Shown in pieces: positions 4,941 to 61,424 of a stretch of 64,000 nt of DNA. Within the stretch, counting starts at the first letter, position 1. Each line of letters begins with the position of its first letter. A model generated the notes under the pieces. That model made no database searches. It saw nothing but the letters and a program-made list of their open reading frames with translations, and had not been told where the DNA came from. The position numbers and the translations under genes are program-made. The DNA is from Mustelus asterias (lineage: Eukaryota): contig NW_027590141.1 in assembly GCF_964213995.1 (NCBI RefSeq), positions 372,001 through 436,000 of the forward strand, in the 5' to 3' direction.

Positions 4941-6048
4941 TCTAAATACACTACATCTACAGATTGCTCTCAATCTACACTCCCCTATTACATTCTCAAA
5001 GAATTCAAGCGAATTTGTCAAACATGATTTATGTTTCATAAAAGAATCTTGATGAGGTTTGATTATATTCAGCTTTCCTAAATGATTAGCTCTTTCCTCT
5101 TTGATTATTGACTCCAGTATCTTGCCAACAACAGATGTGAAATTAACAAGGTTAAATTAACCCTGCCTTCTGCCTTTCTCCCTTTTTGCACAAGGTAGTC
5201 ACATTGGCTGTTTTCCAATCTTCAATATCCTCCCAAAATTTAGCGAGCTACGAAAAATTACAACCAAAGCGTCCACTATCTCTTCAGCAAACTCCATTAA
5301 AAGCCGAGCGTGCAGTTCATTGGGTCCTGGTGACTTGTCCATCCTTCGCCACTGAAGGGAAAGGAAGGGAGTCCAGTCTGTACATTCCACTCATTTAGTC
5401 CAGTCAGATAGACATATATCTGTCTGGCAGCCTGCATGGAGATTTCCAGCTCTCTGTGTCCAGGACAGGAAGCAGTGAGCATGGATCTGTCAATCAGCTT
5501 CAATCAGCACTTTCAGGAGAATTGGGAGGGTGAATATTAGATACAGCAGAGTGAGAATGGAGGGAGAGTGTGTGGGATGGAGATTGACAGCTTTTGGGGA
5601 ATGAGAGAGAAAGAATGTTCTACTGAAATTGTCAGTTCTTAATTTCTATCCTGTCCTGATACTGATTATTTTTGTAAACTCGTTTTGCAGGACATCAGAA
5701 GAGGAGTATTTACAGATAGAAATCGAAATCCAAACTACACATCATGATCTGACAGAGTCACTCAATTCATTGGGACCTGAATATTAGCAGCCTTTGAATC
5801 TGGAAGGAGAAATGTTTCTCTGTTCTTTCTCTTCAGAACGCTTTAAACATCAGTGTGCCTGGAAAAGCTCCAGGATGCACACACACCCGAGAGAGTCTAC
5901 TCCAGTGCACTGACTGTGGAAAGAGCTTTAACCAGTAACACAGCCTGAAAATACATCACAGCATTCACAGCGGGGAGAGACTGTACCCGTGTTCTGTGTG
6001 AGATTTAACTGATTGTTTAACCTGGAGAGTCACAGGGACACCCGCACC

Positions 6049-6807
6049 ATGGAGAAACCGTGGAAATGTGGAGACTGTGGGAAGGTATTCAGGCACCCAT
6101 CTCAGCTGGAAATTCATCAACGCAGTCACACTGGGGAGAGGCCGTTCACCTGCTCTGTGTGTGGGAAAGGATTCAGTCAGTTATCCCACCTACTGAGTCA
6201 CAATCTCACTCACAGCAATGAGAGACTCTTTAAATGCTCTGATTGTGGAAGTGGTTTCAAAAGCTCTCGGAATCTGATGTCCCACCAGCGCATTCACACT
6301 GGGGAGAGACCGTTCAGCTGCTCTCAGTGTGCAAAGGGATTCATTCAGTTATCCCACCTGTTGAGACACAAAGTCACTCACAGCAATGAGAGACCCTTTA
6401 AATGCTCTGACTGTGGGAGCGGATTCAAAAGCTCTCGGGAACTCGTGTTCCACCAGCGCATTCACAGTGAGGAGAGACCGTTCAGCTGCTCTCACTGCTC
6501 AAAGAGATTTAGAACATCATCCAGCCTGCGGAGACACCAGCGAGTTCACACTGGGGAGAGACCGTTCACCTGCTCTGTGTGTGAGAAGGGATTCACCCAG
6601 TCATCCCACCTGCACAGACACCAGCGACTTCACACTGAAGACAGGCCGTTCACCTGCTCTCAGTGTGAGAAGGGATTTACTGACTCATCCAGCCTGCGGA
6701 CACACCAGCGAGTTCACACTGGGGAGAGACCGTTCACCTGCTCTCTGTGTGGGAAGGGATTCATAGTTTCATCCCAGCTGCTGAGACACCAACAAGTTCA
6801 CGAGTGA
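6049..6807 (+). CDS. C2H2 zinc-finger protein 2, 9 fingers, no KRAB seen
   Basis: Intact ORF from ACC-ATG-G (MEKPWKC) with TGERPF linkers; exon acceptor ttttgcag|5691. Confidence 0.9.
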   Translation: MEKPWKCGDCGKVFRHPSQLEIHQRSHTGERPFTCSVCGKGFSQLSHLLSHNLTHSNERLFKCSDCGSGFKSSRNLMSHQRIHTGERPFSCSQCAKGFIQLSHLLRHKVTHSNERPFKCSDCGSGFKSSRELVFHQRIHSEERPFSCSHCSKRFRTSSSLRRHQRVHTGERPFTCSVCEKGFTQSSHLHRHQRLHTEDRPFTCSQCEKGFTDSSSLRTHQRVHTGERPFTCSLCGKGFIVSSQLLRHQQVHE

Positions 6808-15495: not shown

Positions 15496-16521
15496 TCACT
15501 GGTGGCTCATCAGGGTGGATGAGCGAGTGAATCTCTTCCCACACACGAAGCAGGTGAATGGTCTCTCCCCAGTGTGAACTCGCTGGTGTCTCTGCAGGGT
15601 GGCTGACTGAGTGAATCCTTTCTCACACTGCAAACAGATGAATGGCTTCTCCCCAGTGTGAACCCGCTGGTGTGCAGTCAGTTGACATAATTGTCTGAAC
15701 CCAGTCCCGCAGTGAGAGCACCTGAACGGTCTCTCGTCAGTGTGAACAAGCTGATGGCGCATCAGGTCCACAGAACCTTTATAACATTTCTCACAGTCAG
15801 CACATTTAAAAGGTCTCTCATCAGTGTGAACTTGCTGGTGTTTCAGCAGAGTGGACGAATCGCTGAATCCCTTCCCACATTTGGAGCAGGTGAATGTTCT
15901 CTCCCCTGTGTGAACTCGGTGGTGTTGTAGAAGCCCTGATGATCGAGTGAATCTCTTCCCACATTTGAAACAGATGAACGGCTTCTCCCCAGTGTGAATT
16001 CGCTGATGTGCAGCGAGTTCAGATGATTGTCTGAACCCAGTCTCACAGTGAGAGCATCTGAAGGGTCTCTCGTCAGTGTGAACATGCTGATGTCGCATTA
16101 GGTTCTGAGAACTTTTATAGCACTTCCCACAGTCCAGGCATTTAAACGGTCTCTCATCAGTGTGAACTTGCTGATGTTTCAGCAGAGTGGATGAATCAGT
16201 AAATCCCTTCCCACACTTGGAGCAGGTGAATGGCCTCTCCCCAGTGTGAATTCGGTGGTGTTGTTGCAGCCCAGATGATCGAGTGAATCCCTTCCCACAC
16301 TCGGGACAGGTGAATGGCTTCTGCGCATTATGAACACGCTGGTGCCTCAACAGGTTGGATGACCAAGTGAATCCCTTCCCACACTCAGGGCAGGTGAATG
16401 GCCTCTCCCCAGTGTGACAGGGCTGATGAGTTTCCAGCTCAGACGGGGATCTGAATCCCTTCTCACAGTCCCCAGATTTCCACGGTTTATCTACACTGTG
16501 AACATTGCTGTTTTCTTGCAT
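15496..16521 (-). CDS. C2H2 zinc-finger protein 3 (degenerate first finger, 10 full fingers, truncated last finger)
   Basis: Open from acceptor ttcacag|16603, first ATG at 16521. Internal 4-finger block duplication (RSSG/DSST/..LMRH/Q..L.AH twice). Ends HQ*VHK*. Confidence 0.85.
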   Translation of the reverse strand: MQENSNVHSVDKPWKSGDCEKGFRSPSELETHQPCHTGERPFTCPECGKGFTWSSNLLRHQRVHNAQKPFTCPECGKGFTRSSGLQQHHRIHTGERPFTCSKCGKGFTDSSTLLKHQQVHTDERPFKCLDCGKCYKSSQNLMRHQHVHTDERPFRCSHCETGFRQSSELAAHQRIHTGEKPFICFKCGKRFTRSSGLLQHHRVHTGERTFTCSKCGKGFSDSSTLLKHQQVHTDERPFKCADCEKCYKGSVDLMRHQLVHTDERPFRCSHCGTGFRQLCQLTAHQRVHTGEKPFICLQCEKGFTQSATLQRHQRVHTGERPFTCFVCGKRFTRSSTLMSHQ

Positions 16522-23687: not shown

Positions 23688-24221
23688 TCACTCGTGAAGT
23701 CGCTGGTGTGTCACCAGGTGGGAGGAGGTAGTGAATCCCTTCCCACACTCTGAGCAGGTGAATGGTCTCTCCCCAGTGTGAAGTCGCTGATGTGCTTTGA
23801 GGCTGGATGAATGTCTGAAGCTCTTTCCACAGTCAGTGCAGCTGAATGGCCTCTCCTCAGTGTGAACTCGCTGGTGTGTCACAAGGTTGGATGAATTAAT
23901 GAATCGCTTCCCACACACGGAGCAGGTGAACGGCCTCTCTCCAGTGTGAACTCTCCTGTGTAATTGTAGGTTATACATCTGGACGAATCCCTTCCCACAC
24001 ACTGAGCAAGTGTATGGTCTCTCTCCAGTGTGAACTCGCTGGTGTAATGTTAGGCAGGATGATTGAGTAAATTCCTTCCAACACACGGGACACGTGAAGG
24101 GTCTCTCCCCTGTGTGGGTGCGTCGATGAGTTTCCAGTTTGGATGGGCAAGTGAATGCTTTCCCACAGTCTCCACATATCCACGGTTTCTCTATGATGTC
24201 AGTATCATCATGTCTCTCCAT
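23688..24221 (-). CDS. C2H2 zinc-finger protein 4, 6 fingers
   Basis: Intact ORF; acceptor ttttgcag|24522. The ancestral ATG is ATA here and a new ATG lies 27 nt upstream. Confidence 0.85.
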
Positions 24222-24669
24222 ATTGAGTGATTAGTTGAAGCCTCGTCCACACACAGAACACATGCACAGATTCACATTGCTATGAATGGTGTGATGTTTT
24301 CTCAGGCTGTGTAACTGGTTAAAGCTCTTTCCACAGTCAGTTCACTGGAAAACTCTCACTCGGGTGTGTGTCTGTCTCAGTGCTTTTCCAGTCACACTGA
24401 TGTTTGAAATCTTTTCCCGCATTCCACATTCAAAGGCTGATCGTGTTCAGGTGCTGGTGAATTGAGCGACTGTTAAATCTTGATTCAATTTTTCTGAGTG
24501 TAAATCTTCCCCATCAAATATCCTGCAAAAGAAGAAGTTTACAAAACTACTGTCAGTCCAGGATAGAAATTCTGATCAGACAAGTCTAATTTCTAAGGAA
24601 CAACTTTTCTGCTCTTGTTCCCCAAAACAGTAAATCTGTCCCATACACTCTCCCTCTTCCCTGAGCAGA

Positions 24670-25559: not shown

Positions 25560-26620
25560 TGAAATCAAACTCTGATTTTTTTTGTTCCCGTGGGTTATTC
25601 ATTTGGTTTCACCCTCAACAAATACGGTGGCTGCGCATGCGTTGTTCCAATTTACCTCAATAAAGATGGCGGATGCGCATGCGCTTTGCAGTACACGGAC
25701 CTTTATAAAGATGGCGGATTTGAACTCCGGCCTGAAACCATCAGAAGGTCTGAGGAATTTGCTTCGCAAATTGAGGGACTGTGGCCGACACCGGGTGTTT
25801 ATAAAGCCTCACCATCCACCCGCAAACTCCATTTATGTTTCCGGTTTTATTTCAGGCTCTGGATCTGCACTCGGTCTTTGTAAAAATCTCCATTTAAAAC
25901 CCGCTCGCTCGAGCTCCTTACCGTCTGCCGCAGGCACTGCGCATGCTCCAGCTCCAACCAGGATGGGGCCGTGAACCTGGGCCTGTTCCCGGGAGGGAGG
26001 GAGGGAGAAGCCCCGCAGCTGCAAACCAGGGAGCTGACAATGATTCTGAAGGGTTTGCGGATCCTCCCCAATCTCCAACCGCCGGCTCCAGCGCTTCACC
26101 CGGTGCTGAAATATTTGCTCCAGCCCCGCCCCTCATTCACTCCGATTGGTTGGGGGACCAGCCGCTCCCGCTCGGTCCTCCAGCACCGCCCCCTCTTCCT
26201 ATTGGTCCGGAGCTGCCGTCAATCAGTGCCCGGGCATTGTGATGTGGTGCATGCGCAGTGTCATTGCTGGCCTTGGCGCTTGTTTGTCCCGGAGAAGCGG
26301 AGTCAGCGTTAGGCGGTGGCTGGGAGGATTTGGAAACACTTTGTGGATCCGCAAACCCTTCAGAATCATTGTCAGCTCCCTGGTTTGCAGCTGCGGGGCT
26401 TCTCCCTCCCTCCCTCCCTCCCGGGAACAGGCCCAGGTTAACGGCCCCATCCTGGCTCAGCCACTGGAGGATGGTTCACATCAGAGGATGGGGGAGGGGG
26501 ACAATAAATAAGAGGTTACACTTTGGCCTCAAATCAATGAGGACTCTGATCTCTGGGAAGGAAGGAAACCCTGGGAGGTGGGCGGGGAGGATTCACAAAC
26601 ACCCGCTGGAGGCCCCAACA
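25560..26620. promoter_or_regulatory. Bidirectional CpG-island promoter between divergent ZNF4 and ZNF5
   Basis: AAGATGGCGG (YY1) twice, TGCGCATGC (NRF1) several times, ATTGG boxes, GC boxes and a long inverted repeat. Confidence 0.7.
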
Positions 26621-26683
26621 CCCCCAATAAGACCCATTGGTTTTATTGTCAGTCTGCAGACAGGAGCTGGAGAACTGAACCCA

Positions 26684-26806
26684 TGATGTGGAGATGCTGG
26701 CGTTGGACTGGGGTAAACACAGTAAGAGTTTTAACAACACCAGGTTAAAGTCCAACAGGTTTATTTGGTAGCAAAAGCCACAAGCTTTCGGAGCCTTAAG
26801 CTCCTT
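26684..26806 (-). mobile_element. Penelope pLTR fragment truncated inside the hammerhead
   Basis: Matches 33823-33945; stem II and GAAA are present but CTGAAGA is absent. Confidence 0.8.
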
Positions 26807-27400
26807 GCTGTGAAGTAGCTGAAGGCTCCGAGAACTGAACCCAGACAGAGGAGAGGGAGGGAGAAAACTGGGAGTGGAGGAAAGAGATGGTGGAGATGGT
26901 GAGCTGGGTTTGGATTTCAGCCCAGGGAGGAGGGAGTGTGTGTGGGACCGGGATTTACAGATTTGGGGGAACAAGAGAGGAAAAAATGTTCCAGAGAAAC
27001 GAGAATTGTCTGTTCTGAATTTCTATCTGGATTGACAGTGATGACTTTTGTAAATTACTTTTACAGGTGAGGTGAGGAAACATCACATCAAAATCAGACA
27101 GAGTCTCGATTCATTCGGACCTGAATATCCTCAGACTTTGAACGTGGAAGGAGAAATGTTTGTCTGTTCTGCCTGGAAGAGAAAATTTCAAACATCTGTG
27201 TGACTGGAAAAGCCAAGACACACACACATACCCGAGTGAGTGTGTTCCAGTGAACTAACTGTGGAAAGAGCTTTATCCAGTTACGCAGCCTGAAAAAACA
27301 TCACAGCATTCACAGCGAGGAGAAACGATACACGTATTCTGTGTGTGGACAAGGCTTCAACTGATGATCCAACCTGGAGAAACATAAGGACACCAGCACC

Positions 27401-28324
27401 ATGGAGAAACCGTGGAAATGTGGGGACTGTGGGAAAGGATTCAGTTACCCTTCCCTGCTGGAAAACCATCGGCGCAGTCACACTGGTGAGAGACCGTTCA
27501 CCTGTTCTGTCTGTGGGGAGGGATTCATTCAGTCATCTGGCCTTTGGTCTCACCAGAGAATTCACACTGAGGAAAAGCCATTCACCTGCACCTCCTGTGG
27601 GAAGAGGTTCAGGCATTCTTCAGCACTCACTGTGCACCAACGCAGTCACACCGGGGAGAGACCATTCATCTGCTCCGTGTGTGGGAAGGGATTCACTCAG
27701 TCATTCCACCTGCTGTCACACCAGCGAGTTCATACTGGGGAGAGGCCGTTCACCTGCTCCGACTGTGGGAAGGGATTCACTGGGTCATCCCACTTACTGT
27801 CACACCAGCGAGTTCACATTGAGGAGAAGCCATTCAGCTGCACTGACTGTGGACGGAGTTTCAGACAGGCATCCTCCCTCATTGCACACCAGCGAATTCA
27901 CACTGGGGAGAGACCGTTTACTTGCTTTGTGTGTGGAAAGGGATTCACAGTTTTACCCACACTGCTGAGACACCAGAAAATTCACACTGAAGAGAAGCCA
28001 TTCAGCTGCACTGACTGTGGAAAGAATTTCAGGCAGTCATCCAACCTCACTGCTCACCGACGCACTCACACTGCAGAGAGACCATTCACATGCTCCGTGT
28101 GTGGGAAGGGATTCAATCGGCCATCCAACCTCTCTGCTCACCAGCGAGTTCACACAGGGGAGAGGCCATTCACTTGCTCCGTGTGTGGGAAAGGATTCGC
28201 AAAGTCTTTCAACCTGCTGGCTCACCAATGCACTCACACTAAGAGGCCATTCAACTGCTCTGTGTGTGGGAAGGGATTCACTCAGTCACAATGGCTCCTG
28301 AGACATCAACAAGTTCACAAGTGA
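27401..28324 (+). CDS. C2H2 zinc-finger protein 5, 11 fingers
   Basis: Intact ORF from ACC-ATG-G; acceptor ttacag|27067. Confidence 0.9.
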   Translation: MEKPWKCGDCGKGFSYPSLLENHRRSHTGERPFTCSVCGEGFIQSSGLWSHQRIHTEEKPFTCTSCGKRFRHSSALTVHQRSHTGERPFICSVCGKGFTQSFHLLSHQRVHTGERPFTCSDCGKGFTGSSHLLSHQRVHIEEKPFSCTDCGRSFRQASSLIAHQRIHTGERPFTCFVCGKGFTVLPTLLRHQKIHTEEKPFSCTDCGKNFRQSSNLTAHRRTHTAERPFTCSVCGKGFNRPSNLSAHQRVHTGERPFTCSVCGKGFAKSFNLLAHQCTHTKRPFNCSVCGKGFTQSQWLLRHQQVHK

Positions 28325-28446
28325 CTGCAGGGGTTGGATTTTGCTGTTTTTGCTGCTGTTCAGTATTGACAGTCTGACAATATTTTATTTCTGCTGATGT
28401 TAACAAACCCTATAACTAGCTGGAATTTAATATTCTGGGATATTCA

Positions 28447-28797
28447 GGGCGGCATGGTAGCACAGTGGTTAGCACTGCTGCTTCACAGCTCCAGGGTCCT
28501 GGGTTCGATTCCTGGCTCGGGTCACTGTCTGTGTGGAGTTTGCACATTCTCCTCGTGTCTGCGTGGGTTTCCTCCGGGTGCTCCGGTTTCCTCCCACAGT
28601 CCAAAGATGTGCGGGTTAGGTTGATTGGCCAGGTTAAAAATTGCCCCTTAAGAGTCCTGAGATGCATAGGTTAGAGGGATTAGCGGGTAAATATGTGGGG
28701 GTAGGGCCTGGGTGGGATTGTGGTCGGTGCAGACTCGATGGGCCGAATGGCCTCCTTCTGCACTGTAGGGTTTCTATGATTTCTATGATTTCTATGA
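28447..28797 (+). mobile_element. Full-length V-SINE (HE1-like) in the ZNF5 3' trailer
   Basis: A box TAGCACAGTGG, B box GGTTCGATTCC, V-domain and (ttctatga)n tail. Confidence 0.9.
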
Positions 28798-34238: not shown

Positions 34239-36173
34239 TTATGTGAAATAGTGTGACATAAACCCAATATCCCGGTTGAGGCCGTCCTTGTGTGTGCGGA
34301 ACCTGGCTATCAGTTTCTGCTCCGCGACTCTGCGCTGTCGTGTGTCGCGAAGGCCGCCTTGGAGAACGCTTACCCGAATATCAGAGGCCGAATGCCCGTG
34401 ACCGCTGAAGTGCTCCCCAACAGGAAGAGAACAGTCTTGCCTGGTGATTGTCGAGCGGTGTTCATTCATCCGTTGTCGCAGCGTCTGCATAGTTTCCCCA
34501 ATGTACCATGCCTCGGGACATCCTTTCTTGCAGCGTATCAGGTAGACAACGTTGGCCGAGTTGCAAGAGTATGTACCGTGTACCTGGTGGATGGTGTTCT
34601 CACGTGAGATGATGGCATCTGTGTCGATGATCCGGCACGTCTTGCAGAGGTTGCTGTGGCAGGGTTGTGTGGTGTCTTGGTCACTGTTCTCCTGAAGGCT
34701 GGGTAGTTTGCTGCGGACAATGGTCTGTTTGAGGTTGTGCGGTTGTTTGAAGGCAAGAAGTGGGGGTGTGGGGATGGCCTTGGCGAGATGTTCGTCTTCA
34801 TCAATGACATGTTGAAGGCTCCGGAGGAGATGCCGTAGCTTCTCCGCTCCAGGGAAGTACTGGACAACGAAGGGTACTCTGTCCACTGTGTCCCGTGTTT
34901 GTCTTCTGAGGAGGTCGGTGCGGTTTTTCGCTGTGGCGCGTTGGAACTGTTGATCAATGAGTCTAGCGCCATATCCTGTTCTTATGAGGGCATCTTTCAG
35001 CGTCTGGAGGTGTCTGTTGCGATCCTCCTCATCCGAGCAGATCCTGTGTATACGGAGGGCTTGTCCGTAGGGGATGGCTTCTTTAACGTGTTTAGGGTGG
35101 AAGCTGGAGAAGTGGAGCATCGTGAGGTTATCCGTGGGCTTGCGGTACAGTGAGGTGCTGAGGTGACCGTCCTTAATGGAGATGCGCGTGTCCAAGAATG
35201 CAACCGATTCCGGAGAGTAGTCTATGGTGAGCCTGATGGTGGGATGGAACTTGTTGATGTCATCATAGAGTTGTTTCAGTGATTGTTCACCATGAGTCCA
35301 AAGGAAGAAAATGTCATCGATGTATCTAGTGTATAGCACCGGTTGAAGGTCCCGTGCGGTGAAGAAGTCTTGTTCGAACCTGTGCATGAAGATGTTGGCA
35401 TATTGAGGTGCAAATTTGGTCCCCATGGCTGTTCCGTGTGTCTGGATGAAGAACTGGTTGTTGAAGGTGAAGATATTGTGGTCCAGGATGAAGCGGATGA
35501 GATGTAAAATTGCATCTGGAAACTGGCAGTTGTTGGCGCTGAGCACTGAGGCCGTTGCAGCAATGCCATCGTCATGGGGGATGCTGGTGTAGAGTGCTGA
35601 GACATCCATTGTGACGAGGAGCGCTCCTGGTTCAACTGCTCCATGTGTGCCGAGTTTCTGTAGGAAGTCCGTCGTGTCGCGACAAAAGCTGGGGGTTCTT
35701 TGTACAATGGGTTTCAGGATGCCCTCGACAGAGCCGGAGAGGTTCTCGCACAGGGTCCCATTGCCCGATACGATGGGACGGCCGGGTGTGTTTGCCTTGT
35801 GTATCTTCGGGAGGCAGTAGAGATCTCCAACGCGGGGAGTACGTGGGATGAGAGCACGGAGGGTGTTCTGAAGGTCCGGATCAAAGGTCTTGATCAGAGT
35901 GTTGAGTTGACGGGTGTGTTCTTTGGTCGGATCTGCAGGTAACTGTCTGTAGTGTTCCTCGTTGTTGAGTTGTCGGTACACTTCTTTGCAGTAATCCGTT
36001 CTGTTCAGTATGACGATGGCCCCTCCTTTGTCTGCTGGTTTGATGACAATGTTGCGGTTGGTCTTGAGAGCGTGGATGGCGTTACGTTGTGCTTGGGTGA
36101 TGTTCGGGGCTGTCTTGTGAGTGCGGCTGATGAATTTGGTGTTGACGCACCTCCTGACGGCTTGGGCATACAT
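34239..36173 (-). CDS. Penelope-like RT + GIY-YIG endonuclease ORF (N-terminally incomplete)
   Basis: KPADKG, LPKIHK, MDVSALYTSIPH, GTAMG, RYIDD, YRKPT, C..C..C linker, VVYLIRC..YIGET..LRQRMNEH. The frame stays open upstream of the ATG to the breakpoint. Confidence 0.92.
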   Translation of the reverse strand: MYAQAVRRCVNTKFISRTHKTAPNITQAQRNAIHALKTNRNIVIKPADKGGAIVILNRTDYCKEVYRQLNNEEHYRQLPADPTKEHTRQLNTLIKTFDPDLQNTLRALIPRTPRVGDLYCLPKIHKANTPGRPIVSGNGTLCENLSGSVEGILKPIVQRTPSFCRDTTDFLQKLGTHGAVEPGALLVTMDVSALYTSIPHDDGIAATASVLSANNCQFPDAILHLIRFILDHNIFTFNNQFFIQTHGTAMGTKFAPQYANIFMHRFEQDFFTARDLQPVLYTRYIDDIFFLWTHGEQSLKQLYDDINKFHPTIRLTIDYSPESVAFLDTRISIKDGHLSTSLYRKPTDNLTMLHFSSFHPKHVKEAIPYGQALRIHRICSDEEDRNRHLQTLKDALIRTGYGARLIDQQFQRATAKNRTDLLRRQTRDTVDRVPFVVQYFPGAEKLRHLLRSLQHVIDEDEHLAKAIPTPPLLAFKQPHNLKQTIVRSKLPSLQENSDQDTTQPCHSNLCKTCRIIDTDAIISRENTIHQVHGTYSCNSANVVYLIRCKKGCPEAWYIGETMQTLRQRMNEHRSTITRQDCSLPVGEHFSGHGHSASDIRVSVLQGGLRDTRQRRVAEQKLIARFRTHKDGLNRDIGFMSHYFT

Positions 36174-37188
36174 GTCAAGTCGAGGGCAGCGGCCTTCCGG
36201 AGGAGTCCAATTCGACTCTTTCCTCTTCAGACAGGAGGAGATTGGTGTCAGTGACTGTGGGGTTTATATCACACAGGCGGAGATTGGTGTCAGTGACTGT
36301 GGGGGGGCGGGGGTGTGGGGATGGCCTTGGCGAGATGTTCGTCTTCATCAATGACATGTTGAAGGCTCTGGAGGAGATGCCGTAGCTTCCCCGCATCTCC
36401 TCCAGAGCCTTCAACATGTCATTGATGAAGAGGAACATCTCGCCAAGGCCACACCCCCACTTCTTGCCTTCAAACAACCGCACAACCTCAAACAGATCAT
36501 TGTCCGCAGCAAACTACCCAGCCTTCAGGAGAACAGTGACCACGACACCACACAACCCTGGTACAGCAACCTCTGCAAGACGTGCCGGATCATTGACACG
36601 GATGCCATCATCTCACGTGAGAACACCATCCACCAGGTACATGGTACATACTCTTGCAACTCGGCCAACGTTGTCTACCTGATACGCTGCAGGAAAGGAT
36701 GTCCCGAGGCATGGTACATTGGGAAAACCATGACGCTACGCTACGACAATGGATGAATGAACACCGCTCGACCATCACCAGGCTAGACTGTTCTCTTCCT
36801 GTTGGGGAGCACTTCAGCGGTCACGGGCATTCAGCCTCTGATATTCGGGTAAGCGTTCTCCGAGGCGGCCTTCATGACACACGATGGCGCAGAGTCGCTG
36901 AGCAGAAACTGATAGCCAAGTTCCGCACACATGAGGACGGCCTCAACCGGGATATTGGGTTCATGTCACACGATCTGTAATCCCCACAGCTTGCCTGGAC
37001 TTGCGGAATTTCACTGGCTGTCCTGTCTGGAGACAATAGACATCTCTTTGACCTGTCTTGGTGCTCTCTCCACTCACATTGTTTGTACCTTTAAGACTTG
37101 ATTAGCTGTAAGTATTCGCATTCCAACCATTATTCTGTAAATTGAGTTTGTGTCTTTATATGCCCTGTTTGTGAACAGAATTCCCACT

Positions 37189-37460: not shown

Positions 37461-38299
37461 TCCCAAAGGTGATGGGTTCCCATCAAGTGGAGGTGACTTT
37501 TCCAGCTCAGGTACATTCACAGGATGGAGGAAGGTCACTCCAGTGGCTCGGCAACAAGAGCCAACACTGAAAACAACAACCCACAACCAGACCTGAGAAC
37601 CACTTCACTTGTGGCAAAACCTGCCCCTCACGGATTGGTCCCTTCAGCCATCAGTAACAGTGAAGCAGAGGGTGCGTGGGCCTTCAGGGTCTCAGTGACC
37701 AGGAGAGACAACAATTCTGCACAGAGGGGCCTGAGAGCTGAACCCAGACAGAGTGGAGGGAGGGAGAAAACTGAGTGGAGAAAAGAATTGGTGGAGAGGG
37801 TGAGATGGGTTTGGATTTCAGCCCAGGGACGGGGGAGAGTGTGTGAGATGGGGATTTACAGATTTGGAGGAAACGAGAGGAAAAAATGTTCCAAAAACAA
37901 AACTAGAATTATCTGTTCAGAATTTCTATCCTGGACTGACAGTGATTAATTTTGTAAACTCTTTTTCCAGGTATTAACAAGGGAAAGATTTGTAGATGCA
38001 AAACTCAAAACAAACATTTTGGTTTGAGTCAATCGATCATTCATCAATCTGTGAATGTGGAAGGAGAAATGTTTATCTCTTGAAGATTTTAAACATCAGT
38101 GCAACTGGAAAAACACCGAGACACACACACCCGAGTGAGAGTGTTCCAGTGAACTGACTGTGGAAAGAGCTTTAACCAGTGACACAACCTGAGAAAACAT
38201 CACACCATTCACAGCGGGGAGAAACTGTACACGTGTTATCTGCAAGGACGAGCTTTCAACTGATCATCTAACCTGGAGAGACACAAGGACACTGGCACC

Positions 38300-39100
38300 A
38301 TGGAGAAACCTTGGAAATGTGGGGACTGTGGTAAGGGATTCAAGTCTTTATTCCGACTGGAAATCCATCAACGCAGTCACACTGGGGAGAAGCCATTCGT
38401 CTGTTCTGTGTGTGGGAAGGGATTTACCAAGACAACATACCTGATGTTACACCAGAGAATTCACACTGAGGAGAGGCCCTTCAGCTGCACTCACTGTGGG
38501 AAGAGGTTCAACAGCACATCCAGCCTCGCTACACACCAGCGGATTCACACTGGGGTGAAGCCGTTCACCTGCTTTGTGTGCGGTGAGAAATTCACTCGGT
38601 CATCCGGCCTTTGGACACATCAGCGAATTCACACTGAGGAGAAACCGTTCAGCTGCACTTCTTGTGGAAAGAGTTTCGGGCAGTCATCCACCCTGACTGC
38701 TCACCAACGCACTCACACCGGGGAGCGACCATTCACCTGCTCCGTGTGTGGGAAGAAATTCTCCCAGTCATTCGATCTGGTGAGACACCAGCGACTTCAC
38801 ACCGGGGAGAGACCATTCACCTGCTCGGTGTGTGGGAAGGGATTCGCTCGGTTATTCACCCTCCAGTCCCACCACCGCACTCACACTCAGGAGAATCCAT
38901 TCAGCTGCAGTACCTGTGGAAAGAGTTTCAAGCAGTCATCCAACCTCCTGACTCACCGACGCACTCACTCTGGGGAGAGGCCTTTCACCTGCTCCTTGTG
39001 TGGAAAGGCATTCACAAGGTCCTCCAGCCTGCTGAGACACCAGCAAATTCATAATAGACTGCAAGGATTGGATTCTGCTTTTAATCACAGCCAGGATTGA
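38300..39100 (+). CDS. C2H2 zinc-finger protein 6, 9 fingers
   Basis: Intact ORF; acceptor tttccag|37971. The usual stop is lost, so it reads 12 aa into the trailer (RLQGLDSAFNHSQD). Confidence 0.9.
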   Translation: MEKPWKCGDCGKGFKSLFRLEIHQRSHTGEKPFVCSVCGKGFTKTTYLMLHQRIHTEERPFSCTHCGKRFNSTSSLATHQRIHTGVKPFTCFVCGEKFTRSSGLWTHQRIHTEEKPFSCTSCGKSFGQSSTLTAHQRTHTGERPFTCSVCGKKFSQSFDLVRHQRLHTGERPFTCSVCGKGFARLFTLQSHHRTHTQENPFSCSTCGKSFKQSSNLLTHRRTHSGERPFTCSLCGKAFTRSSSLLRHQQIHNRLQGLDSAFNHSQD

Positions 39101-45220: not shown

Positions 45221-46007
45221 AGGTTAGCGGCCACCATCTTGGGCAACAGAGTGCATGCATGGTCATGTCTGTGTCCCTGAAATATCCGTCACTCTGGTTG
45301 TTATATAGCACACAGTTAAAGACTATAGTTATATAGTCTTTATTTATCACACTGAGATATAGTCTTGCAGCTCATGGCTGCGTAATTTATTACTTTAAAG
45401 TGTCATTATGGCATGGAAAGATTCCATTCGACAACTCGAATCCACGTTGACTCGAGCAATCCACTTCTCCCTCTACTTCACTGTTCCGCTGCAAGTTTAT
45501 TTCTTTCAATTGTCCATCCAATTTCATTTTGAAATCACTGATCATCTCCACATATACTTTCTGTGTAGGCAGTGAGTTCCAAGTCATAGCCCTCACTGCT
45601 TAGATAATGTTCTTGTTCATAAACTTTCTTCATTTCTAATTATGTAATACTGTAATACAGTCTATTTGCATTTTTACACCACAAAATGTTGAGATTTATT
45701 TTATATATATATATATATGAGAGAGAGAGTCCAGCAGCATCAATGAAAATTTTGGGTCTCTTTGCCCAGAACAGGAGACTTTTTCTTCAGTCAGCATGAA
45801 TTAGCACCACCAGGAGAATTAGGAAAGTGAATATTTGGAAGAGCAGAGTGAGGATGGGAGCAGAGTGAGGATGGGGGGGAAAGTGTATCCGATGGGGATG
45901 TCGTGGTTTTTGGAAATAGGAAAGAATTTTCAACAGAAATTAGAATTGTTTATTCTGAATTTCTATCCTGTACTTGCAGTGATAACTTTTGCAAACTCCT
46001 TTTCCAG

Positions 46008-46412
46008 GATATTTAAAGGGAAGGGTTTTCAGACAAAAATCTCAAACAAAACAGGTCAAGATTTGACAGAAGCGTTTGATTCATCAGAACCTGAAAATCA
46101 TTTGATTTGAACCCAGAAGAAGAAATCTTGTCTGTTCTGTCACCTTCTGAAGTTTTCAAACATCAGTGTGACAGAAAAACACAGAGACACAGACATCCAG
46201 GTGAGTGTGTCCCAGTGAACTGACTGGAAAGACCTTTGACCAATTACACAGCCTGAAAAAACATCACACCGTTCACAGCGAGGAAAAACTGTCCACGTGT
46301 TGTGTGTGTGGACGAGGCTTTGACTGATTGTCCAACCTGGAGAGACATGGCAAAACCATGGAAATGTGGGGAATGTGCAAGGGATTCCGTGTCCCATCTG
46401 CACTCGAAGCTA
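46008..46412 (+). pseudogene. ZNF pseudogene 7: leader and partial first finger, cut by a CR1 tail
   Basis: Acceptor tttccag|46008, dead-finger leader, KPWKCGEC, then frameshift and LINE sequence. Confidence 0.75.
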
Positions 46413-47404: not shown

Positions 47405-47911
<507 letters not shown>

Positions 47912-48524
47912 GGTGTGGCTGTCTGTGTCTCAGTGCTTTTGCAGTCACACTGATGGCAAAATGGGTGATGGTTTCCTGCGTCCAAATGAATCGAGTGACT
48001 CTGTCAGGTCTTGATGTGAAGTTTAGTTTGGGATTTCTGATGGCAAATCCTCTCCTTTTAGTATCCTGTAAAAGGAGTTTACAAATGTCATCACTGTCAG
48101 TACAGCTCAGAAACTCAGAACAGACAATCCTAGTTGCTGTGAAACATTCTGTCCACTCTCGTTCCCCAAACCTGTAAGTTACTACCTCTTGCTCCATCCC
48201 CCCCAACTCCCCACTCCCTCCATTCTCACTCTGCTGTATTCACCTTCCCAATTCTCTTCAAGGTGCTAATTCATGCTGATGGGCACTTTTGACACTCTTG
48301 TTCTCGACCAAGTGACAATAGGATCCTATGAAATAGGAGCAGGAGTCGGCCATTCGGCTCACCAACTCTGCTGTTCTATTTCATAAGATCATGGCTGATC
48401 TGATTGTGATTCTGACTTCATTTTCTTCCTGTCACCCATAACCCTTGACCCTATATTTAATAATGCAGCCCCCACTGCTCTCTGGGCAAGAGAACTGCAA
48501 AGATTAACGACCCATTAATTGACA

Positions 48525-48780
48525 GACCAGATGATCGACTGAAGCCTCGTCCACACACAGAAACGTGTATGGTTTCTCCCCACTGTGAACAGTGCTTTTT
48601 CCTCCTATGTTCAAAACTCGATCACATTCAGGGCAGGATAAATTGGGTGATGTTTGATTTTAGTTTCCTGACTTCAAATCCTTTTCTTCTAAAAACCTAT
48701 GAAATTGATTTAAACACAAAAAGAGGAGTGAGAGAGAACCCACAAAAACACAAAGGCAGGTTGTGAAATTGAGCTGAATG
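48525..48780 (-). pseudogene. ZNF leader/acceptor fragment (ZNF3 subtype)
   Basis: Homologous to 16600-16690; encodes part of the third dead finger. Another leader fragment at about 49905-50030. Confidence 0.6.
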
Positions 48781-52840: not shown

Positions 52841-53959
52841 TCACTTGTGAACTTGCTGATGTGTCAACAGGTGCTGTGACTGAGTGAAGCCCTTTCCACA
52901 CACACAGCAGGTGAACGGCCTCTCCCCAGTGTGAATTCTCTGGTGTGTCTGCAGGTGAGAGCACTGAGAGAATCCCTTCCCACACTCGGAGCAGGTGAAT
53001 GGCCTGTCCCCAGTGTGGGTGCGTCGGTGTGCAGTGAGGGCGGAAGAATGTCTGAACCTCTTTTCACAGGAAGTGCAGCTGAATGGCTTCTCCTCGGTGT
53101 GAATTCGCTGGTGTGACCAAAGGCCACTCGAGTGAGTAAATCTCTTCCCACACACAGAGCAGGTGAATGGTCGCTCCCCAGTATGAGTGCGTTGGTGTGC
53201 AGTGAGGTCGGAAGATTGCCTGAACCTCTTTCCACAGTGCTTGCAGCTGAATGGCCTCTCCTCTGTGTGAATTCGCTGGTGTAACATGAGGCTGGCTGAC
53301 TGAGTGAATCCCTTACCACACATACAGCAGGTGAATGGTCTCTCCCCAGTGTGAACCCGCTGGTGTGCAGTGAGGTTGGATAACTGTCCGAAACTCTTTT
53401 CACAGTAAGTGCAGCTGAAGGGCTTCTCCTCAGTGTGATTTCGCTGGTGTCTCAGTAAGTTGGTTGACTTAGTAAATCCCTTCCCACACACAGAACAGGA
53501 GAATGGCTTCTCCCCGGTGTGGCTGCGTCGATGGATTTCCAGCAGGCACGGGAAATTGAATCCTTTGCCACAATCCTCACATTTCCATGGTTTCTCCATG
53601 GCCCCTGCCCCAGTGTGACTGCGTCGATGGTATTCTAGCAGGGATGGATAATTGAATCCTTTCCCACATTCTTCACATTTGCAAATCCGCTCCCCAGTGT
53701 GACTGCGTCGATGGTTTTCCAACAAGGATGGATAATTGAATCCTTTCCCACATTCCTCACATTTCCATGGTCTCTCTCCAGTGTGACTGCGTTGGTGAAT
53801 TTCCAACAGGGATGGATAATTGAATCCCTTCCCACATTCCACACATTGCCACGGTTTTTCCATCGTGCCAGCCCCACCGTGAACGCGTCGATGGATTTCC
53901 AGCCGGGATGGAAAATTGAATCGTTTCCCACAGTCCCCACATTTCCACTGTTTCTCCAT
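52841..53959 (-). CDS. C2H2 zinc-finger protein 9, 13 fingers
   Basis: Intact ORF from ACC-ATG-G (MEKQWKC); the first five fingers are copies of the leader-finger type. Confidence 0.9.
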   Translation of the reverse strand: MEKQWKCGDCGKRFNFPSRLEIHRRVHGGAGTMEKPWQCVECGKGFNYPSLLEIHQRSHTGERPWKCEECGKGFNYPSLLENHRRSHTGERICKCEECGKGFNYPSLLEYHRRSHTGAGAMEKPWKCEDCGKGFNFPCLLEIHRRSHTGEKPFSCSVCGKGFTKSTNLLRHQRNHTEEKPFSCTYCEKSFGQLSNLTAHQRVHTGERPFTCCMCGKGFTQSASLMLHQRIHTEERPFSCKHCGKRFRQSSDLTAHQRTHTGERPFTCSVCGKRFTHSSGLWSHQRIHTEEKPFSCTSCEKRFRHSSALTAHRRTHTGDRPFTCSECGKGFSQCSHLQTHQRIHTGERPFTCCVCGKGFTQSQHLLTHQQVHK

Positions 53960-59829: not shown

Positions 59830-60443
<614 letters not shown>

Positions 60444-61424
60444 GGTGCCAGTGGCCTTGTGTCGTTCCAGGTTGGATGATCAGTTAAAGTCTTGTCCACA
60501 CACAAAACACTTGTAAAGTTTCTTTCTGTTTAAACTTAAACAGCATTTCACTTTCAGTCAGGAACAGATCCCAGTTTTACACCAATCTCTGATTTCACAG
60601 CACATTTACAGCATCCACCATTGTTCTTCCTGACTCTAAACCCAGTTGTAAAGGAGTTTCTGTTCCGTGTCGAGGAGCCCTGAACAATGGAAGAGACCCC
60701 CCCTGTCCCCCTGCCAGAGAGCGATCAGGCCCCCCCTCTCCCCCACCAGAGATACATGTTACCCGCCTCCCTCCCCACCCCCCAGAGAATGATCTGGCCT
60801 CACTCCCCCCCCCTCCCCCCCCCCCCGCCACCAGAGGACGATGCCCACCCCCCACACCCCCCAGAGATACATCTTACCCACCTCCCTCCTCCCCTCCAAG
60901 AGAATGATCTGCCCCCCACCCACCTCCCCTCCCCCCCCCCCCCCCCCCCGGGCCAGGGAATGATTTGGCCTAATCCTCCCTCACCCCCCAAGAGAATGAT
61001 CTGGCTTTACTCCCCCCTCCCCCGAGGTACATCTGACCCGCCTCCTCCTCCCTGCCCCCACCCCCCCCCCCGCTCCGGTCGATCTGGGTTAGTGAGCCGT
61101 TGGAAGCTCTGAACGCGCCTCTTCAGCAGCTGGAGTGCTCGAATCAGACTTTTATTCAGCAGGTCCATTTCGGTGCGATTCCGGATCGGCTAACGTGGTG
61201 GTAAAGGGAGAAATGCTGGTAAAGTTGGGCAGGCAATTCATTAATTCAATTTAAATGCATGCAAATGCATTTAAATCACCGTTGCGCCCGTTTCGGGCGT
61301 GAATCAGATCATGGCCATTCCCGGGTCTCAGTAAAGTGGCCATCTGCGCGGGCGCGGAGCGTGTTAATGGTCTCACACCTAACTTTACTATGTTTTCGTG
61401 CCTGCAATGGTAAAATCGGGCCCT

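Follow-up and report, generated by a model that had tools for sequence, protein, structure and literature searches.

The 27401 gene and its leader

The window, a stretch of 64,000 nucleotides corresponding to positions 372001–436000 of contig NW_027590141.1 in the 3.68 Gb genome of the shark Mustelus asterias, contains clustered tandem arrays of C2H2 zinc fingers on both strands. One of these, with its main ORF at 27401–28324, is a tandem Kruppel-type C2H2 ZNF gene: its 11 fingers are C-x2-C-x12-H-x3-H repeats joined by TGE[KR]P linkers in a single ORF, which starts six codons ahead of the first Cys of the first finger. The Pfam matches listed for this ORF (25 of 32) are of zinc-finger types only and do not include KRAB, SCAN or BTB, so that the gene does not class as a KRAB-ZNF or FiNZ-ZNF. 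The features of the gene and of the leader ahead of it are as follows.

27065..27066 (+): predicted splice acceptor AG that opens the finger exon; 86 of 90 leader genes retain the AG
27067..27400 (+): leader, likely 5' UTR, from former coding sequence; 334 nt (the median over 108 genes is 345 nt)
27144..27146 (+): GTG where MEG-type genes have their start codon, probably the lost ancestral ATG, from alignment with MEG-type genes
27156..27203 (+): upstream ORF (uORF) of 15 codons, the first half of fossil finger 1
27198..27213 (+): 16-nt slow piece in the terminal part of fossil finger 1, holding the uORF stop and the 5' arm of a predicted stem
27247..27313 (+): fossil finger 2, which changes most slowly within the leader, with the 3' arm of the stem (27270–27286) inside
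27335..27397 (+): fossil finger 3; its homolog in MEG-type genes is the live first finger
27362..27364 (+): in-frame TGA at -39, probably from CGA by CpG decay; a second TGA at 27365
27401..28324 (+): main ORF, 307 aa, 11 C2H2 fingers, ATG context ACCATGG

We infer from the sequence that the leader is spliced to an upstream exon and constitutes 5' UTR. Conservation gave no definite position for the first exon or its donor. The rows listed for four contig sets that we guess to be RNA include no splice joint at 27066, and two contig pieces of this presumed RNA are continuous from the predicted intron into the leader. Farther upstream, the predicted promoter or first exon (26300–26620) has 36 matches in 1.46 Mb, with nearly every column conserved to at least 90%, a uniformity far above that of the leader. 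A high-copy repeat occupies 26682–26800 within the predicted intron, and one contig of run X2 lacks 26670–26829. Elsewhere in the window, a 674-aa open frame at 34239–36263 (-) carries a reverse transcriptase domain (Pfam RVT_1, E 3e-10), with a C-terminal part that presumably resembles the GIY-YIG nuclease of Penelope-like elements, and decayed copies of the element adjoin at 36175–36980.

The original prediction, made from the window sequence, placed about 330 nt of dead fingers between the acceptor and the ATG of the MEKPW motif that opens the protein, and three fossil C2H2 fingers are indeed present there; the stop-free middle of the leader matches Pfam zf-H2C2_2 (E 2.4e-5) and zf-C2H2 (E 5e-4). 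The peptide strings quoted for these fingers are typical of the family but are not the exact reading of the 27401 gene, in which the first Cys of fossil finger 2 is itself replaced by TGA (27251–53). That stops occupy fixed positions holds for the -39 stop and not elsewhere, since the first Cys of finger 2 is TGA in 45/108 genes and TGC in 44/108. The leader is common to the whole family in a broad sense, although the -39 stop is missing from four of the nine genes in the window that bear a start: it is shifted by an indel at 1867 and deleted at 47911 and 53959, and the gene at 16494 is of a different type. At 45935–46376 (+) a full leader does not lead into any intact finger array (ORF of 39 codons), which marks a pseudogene.

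Genome-wide, a 30-mer of fossil finger 2 has 2,641 matches with up to two mismatches and its control has none; the leader core is thus present in at least 2,641 copies. The finger 2 motif had no match in a metagenome scan, and literature searches found no published work describing such a leader of shark ZNF genes. For comparison across genes, set 1 comprises 132 full leaders from 1.46 Mb of cluster DNA, with 72 representatives under 95% identity. For stop and rate counts, 24 leaders from loci picked by a TGA-containing pattern were dropped, leaving 108, among which two 100-kb regions had likewise been placed around TGA-pattern matches. Set 2 comprises 22 more divergent leaders from 0.4 Mb on two chromosome-scale contigs, in regions chosen from listed pattern matches, which may slightly favor conserved copies. 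Rates count parsimony steps for each column, with CpG-prone columns removed, on a single tree whose paralogs recombine; they are base-normalized to the part of the leader ahead of the upstream ATG (uATG), a yardstick on which the live first finger scores 1.11 at synonymous sites.

The MEG-type sister clade and the stop at -39

The history of the leader can be read because a still-coding sister clade, the MEG-type genes, whose reading frame begins with MEG, resides in the same clusters and codes straight through finger 3. Alignment of 22 such genes (31 matches, of which 9 were set aside as leader-type or ambiguous) shows three differences. The probable ancestral start site is ATG in 20/22 MEG-type genes and GTG, CTA, CCA or CTG in leader-type genes; the codon at -39 is CGA (10/22) or CAA (9/22) in MEG-type genes and TGA or TAA in leader-type genes; and the position of the MEKPW ATG is AGG or GGG in 13/22 MEG-type genes and ATG in 4/22. 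Such an ATG at the linker (e.g. L096:2929-3048:+) suggests that the linker repeatedly becomes a start codon. MEG-type genes also lack 146 nt of fingers 1 and 2, which on the unrooted tree may represent a loss in the MEG type or a gain in the leader type.

On a tree of 94 genes, leader-type and MEG-type genes are separated by a single change of type, pointing to a single founder. The new start has the ACCATGG context in 74/108 genes, and the rate of change falls to 0.26–0.40 right at the MEKPW ATG. The existence of the MEG clade, the single change of type and the onset of constraint at this ATG bear out the proposal that coding fingers became non-coding before the family expanded. The fragment near 48535 does keep CGA, as originally noted, but is a MEG-type piece without fingers 1 and 2 and no leader-type paralog.

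In the scheme that we propose, the founder of the subfamily would have lost the old start codon, CpG decay would have turned CGA in finger 3 into TGA, and the linker of the following finger would have given rise to a new ATG with strong context, three events that may have come in any order. Translation from this linker-derived ATG would begin at MEKPW and yield a bare finger array. The broken front would then have been copied into at least 2,600 genes. If the front was abandoned once and then copied, the shared stop and uORF are likely passengers. The family would thereby offer a clean, large-scale case in which coding sequence became leader and a finger linker supplied the start codon.

Five genes had been reported to carry an in-frame stop that precedes the start position by exactly 39 nt, and all five have it. 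Their stops, apart from that of the 27401 gene, are listed here, together with the MEG-type fragment.

6010..6012 (+): TGA, paralog starting at 6049
24231..24233 (-): TAA, paralog at 24194, with ATA at the start position
38261..38263 (+): TGA, paralog starting at 38300
60480..60482 (-): TGA, paralog starting at 60443, whose leader keeps only the last ~110 nt
48521..48600 (-): MEG-type sister gene fragment, CGA at 48537–48535

In the 24194 gene (-), where ATA stands in place of the family ATG, translation could begin 27 nt farther upstream, at an in-frame ATG that follows the -39 TAA; the same turnover of the start (24194–24221) occurs in five sampled relatives of this subtype.

In set 1 the -39 codon is TGA or TAA in 99/108 genes. 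Point changes that destroy the stop number 3 on the tree versus ~12.7 expected (Poisson P=0.0013, without rate variation), and changes from TGA to TAA number 5 versus 4.9 expected, a hint of selection on the stop, which ties for the lowest among 15 TGA triplets; in set 2, however, there are three destroying changes to one preserving change. A genome-wide count within one 24-nt context, which numbers copies and not events, gives for the triplet in 1,662 copies TGA in 1,171, T[ACT]A in 436 (75 TAA, 23 TCA and 2 TTA by eye in the first 100 listed), a changed first base in 41 (33 of them AGA) and a changed third base in 14; for the neighboring A, A and T the changed copies number 28, 21 and 68. 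Neither the stop A compared with the neighboring A (14/1185 vs 49/3045, P=0.33) nor the stop T compared with the neighboring T (41/1212 vs 68/1566, P=0.20) changes significantly less often. About 90% of the context-matched copies have the stop and about 10% do not, and some of the stop-less copies were amplified in their turn. Common descent therefore appears to account for most of the fixity of the -39 position, with special selection at most weak.

Coding constraint and upstream ORFs

No part of the leader shows the amino acid constraint of a translated finger. Omega is 1.01 for fossil finger 2, 1.15 for fossil finger 3, 1.07 for the uORF and 0.79 (P=0.10) from the stop to the ATG, compared with 0.66 (P=5e-4) for the live first finger, which has 2 stop gains versus 23 expected. 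Length variants that shift the frame outnumber in-frame ones in every segment of the leader (29 vs 4 before the -39 stop and 12 vs 2 from stop to ATG, in 72 genes), and the open stretch upstream of the stop ranges from 1 to 79 codons. Most of the leader evolves near the rate of the adjacent intron or of synonymous sites, as it would if the original proposal of a retained control region were wrong, with the exception of one slower block. On the tree the intron scores 1.36 and the leader 0.90, and the 36 nt before the ATG are slowed to 0.69; more of the leader may therefore be mildly constrained.

Regulatory uORFs and programmed stop readthrough are known types of translation control, and the leader resembles both in having a uATG in adequate context and an in-frame TGA ahead of the main ORF. 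The uORF had been correctly placed at 27156–27203 (+), in frame +2 relative to the main ORF. In favor of the proposal that it and the in-frame stops exert a shared control of translation, by reinitiation or by readthrough, 71 of 72 genes listed have a purine three bases ahead of the uATG (-3), the uORF stop is TGA in 100/108, and destroying changes at -39 are few on the tree. In addition, every intact gene (52/52) has at least one upstream ATG, with a median of three, and translated finger arrays are described as stalling ribosomes in zebrafish (PMC11620358), a possible reason for keeping extra fingers untranslated.

The uORF itself, however, is poorly retained: its ATG is present in 73/108 genes of set 1 and 12/22 of set 2, the 15-codon form occurs in 37/108, lengths range from 3 to 35 codons, and only 5/108 uORFs end at the -39 stop. 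The uATG is no more frequent in intact genes than in broken ones (37/52 vs 36/56, P=0.54), so that neither the preferential retention in functional genes nor the conserved length or peptide of a conserved regulatory uORF is seen, and the idea of a shared reinitiation switch is not supported. Readthrough fares no better, the frame being broken on both sides of the stop and amino acids showing no constraint (omega ~1), and the stop being missing from about a tenth of the copies. Unlike known systems of either type, the shark leader has no conserved length, peptide or frame. Protein searches for an open version of fingers 2 and 3 weigh little on the same side: a read-through leader query gave one hit of two candidates (38%) and two of four (41%, generic long ZNFs), and a profile-free search with representatives was swamped by multi-finger proteins (37–50%) and returned no open-frame version. 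Shared translation control is thus very improbable. Upstream ATGs damp translation, and their presence in all intact genes suggests that translation is likely damped in the ordinary manner. Selenocysteine recoding at the TGA of finger 2 was rejected, as this TGA is present in only 45/108 genes within a broken frame and 25800–28500 contains no SECIS match.

The slowly evolving block

A stretch of ~80 bases, made up of fossil finger 2 plus 16 nt from the end of fossil finger 1, changes at about 0.5–0.7 of the leader rate in both gene sets. Finger 2 (27247–27313) has 0.53 of the expected changes in set 1 and 0.67 in set 2, and the 16-nt piece (27198–27213) has 0.62 and 0.56. Taken together, the block scores 167/315=0.53 in set 1 versus 0.90 for the rest of the leader (P=2e-6), and 122/183=0.67 in the 22 genes of set 2 versus 0.94 (P=0.0014); permutation of the window scan gives P=0.0004 and P=0.016, respectively. 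The slowdown is also seen in tree-free p-distances, 0.134 for the block compared with 0.22–0.25 (56 representatives of the first 90 genes), and in 66/72 genes considered singly. Synonymous and non-synonymous sites of the block are equally slow (0.52 and 0.52).

The two parts of the block contain the arms of a predicted 15-bp stem, and conserved RNA structure, in which the stem would close a three-way junction within the 5' UTR, is one possible explanation. An alignment fold predicts the stem with pair probabilities of 0.8–1.0, the folding z is -2.75 in the 27401 gene and averages -1.53 over 25 paralogs (which are not independent), whereas four other folding windows average about 0 to +0.7. Set 1 and set 2 agree in the slow change of each arm, and 89.6% of cells pair in the 73 aligned leaders (73 of 80 located). 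The substitutions do not follow the pairing, however. Two-sided changes occur in 0/15 pairs versus 2.3 in shuffles of the same 73 leaders, covariation is 0.044 and thus under the shuffled value of 0.056, and the pair-keeping share of changes (0.26 vs 0.27–0.31 expected) shows no excess such as a structured cis-regulatory RNA would leave. Unpaired parts of finger 2 are about as slow as the arms (0.68 vs 0.62), and the four Rfam matches are all far under threshold and none lies on the leader. We consider a conserved structure quite improbable. With regard to the idea of an m6A motif, the A and C of DRACH sites have 4.5 and 6.7 changes versus 5.5 and 7.2 at other AC.

A wholly neutral leader, in which nothing is selected and the block is either a mutation cold spot or has been homogenized by gene conversion next to a CA repeat, is consistent with omega of ~1 throughout and with the absence of the block from MEG-type genes. 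It is also consistent with the lack of clear relaxation in broken genes (0.047–0.057 in intact and 0.045–0.065 in broken genes), and with block distances from consensus that are overdispersed and unrelated to those of the flanks (rho 0.12). Among 49 disjoint close pairs, moreover, the block has 89/3783 changes versus 389/12326 (ratio 0.74, P=0.01), a weaker slowdown than the ~0.55 of deep pairs, and this too could come from a cold spot or from conversion. Against it, the held-out block fits the tree of its flanks as other segments do (retention index 0.51 vs 0.45–0.59), which argues against a special conversion tract; the slowdown stands when CpG columns are removed and bases normalized, and it recurs in the second, more divergent set; and fossil fingers 1 and 3, of similar composition, run at 0.8–1.0. 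On balance a neutral relic seems unlikely to us.

Conservation of the block as sequence, independent of frame and of pairing, is the pattern of a family-wide DNA docking motif such as that of ZNF274, and the simplest selective reading would be sequence recognition, most likely on DNA. The origin of the leader from a coding front is well supported, control through the stop and uORF is unsupported, and the slow block is a lead worth testing; it is likely a sequence-specific cis control element. The reading that we favor combines these elements, and we hold it with modest confidence: the leader would be the abandoned front of an older ZNF frame, the stop and uORF its passengers, and the slow block a cis element. 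By analogy with ZNF274, we would guess that the block is a docking site through which one factor addresses the whole family. A bolder version, possible but rather doubtful, makes dead finger 2 a non-coding master site at which one DNA- or RNA-binding factor, possibly a family member, co-regulates or silences more than 2,600 effector-less ZNF genes, with MEG genes escaping for lack of the block. If the block is a real cis element it would provide a single handle on the control of thousands of bare finger arrays in cartilaginous fish; otherwise the leader is a relic passed on by inheritance, and its fixed stops are explained by descent alone. Motif likenesses within the block are, we presume, MYB-like, Grainyhead-like and NFAT-like.

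Docking motifs for ZNF274/TRIM28/SETDB1/ATRX are described in exons of human ZNF genes (PMC4939920), and the shark block as proposed is like them in being finger-derived DNA through which one factor reaches a gene family; as reported there, however, the ZNF274 motifs lie in 3' exons that still code and were demonstrated by ChIP, whereas the block lies in dead fingers and is a putative site. The human KRAB-ZNF gene ZNF252 is described as having degenerate fingers left untranslated behind an in-frame stop (PMC2865497), with 5' untranslated exons and one finger exon, as predicted for the shark gene. In cases of the ZNF252 type the fossil fingers are in the 3' UTR of single genes by that account, whereas those of the shark precede a new, linker-derived start and were fixed before expansion to thousands. 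As lineage-specific, clustered and fast-evolving tandem C2H2 genes with a common N-terminal signature, the shark genes resemble the FiNZ-ZNF genes of cyprinids and KRAB-ZNF clusters as these are presented in PMC10547256. The FiNZ or KRAB front end is a protein domain, however, while that of the shark is non-coding and its ORF has no Pfam effector domain among the matches listed. The main text of that survey of 3,221 assemblies does not contain "shark" or "chondrichth", and its supplements may hold shark ZNF counts.

Two observations concern the live fingers. In the gene starting at 53959 (-) the MEKPW-type first finger is repeated internally (53959, 53863, 53599), which places extra in-frame ATGs in linkers. 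In the 27401 gene, the recognition-helix codons of the live first finger (27435–27465) change at 1.5 times the leader yardstick, which fits the diversifying selection expected there.
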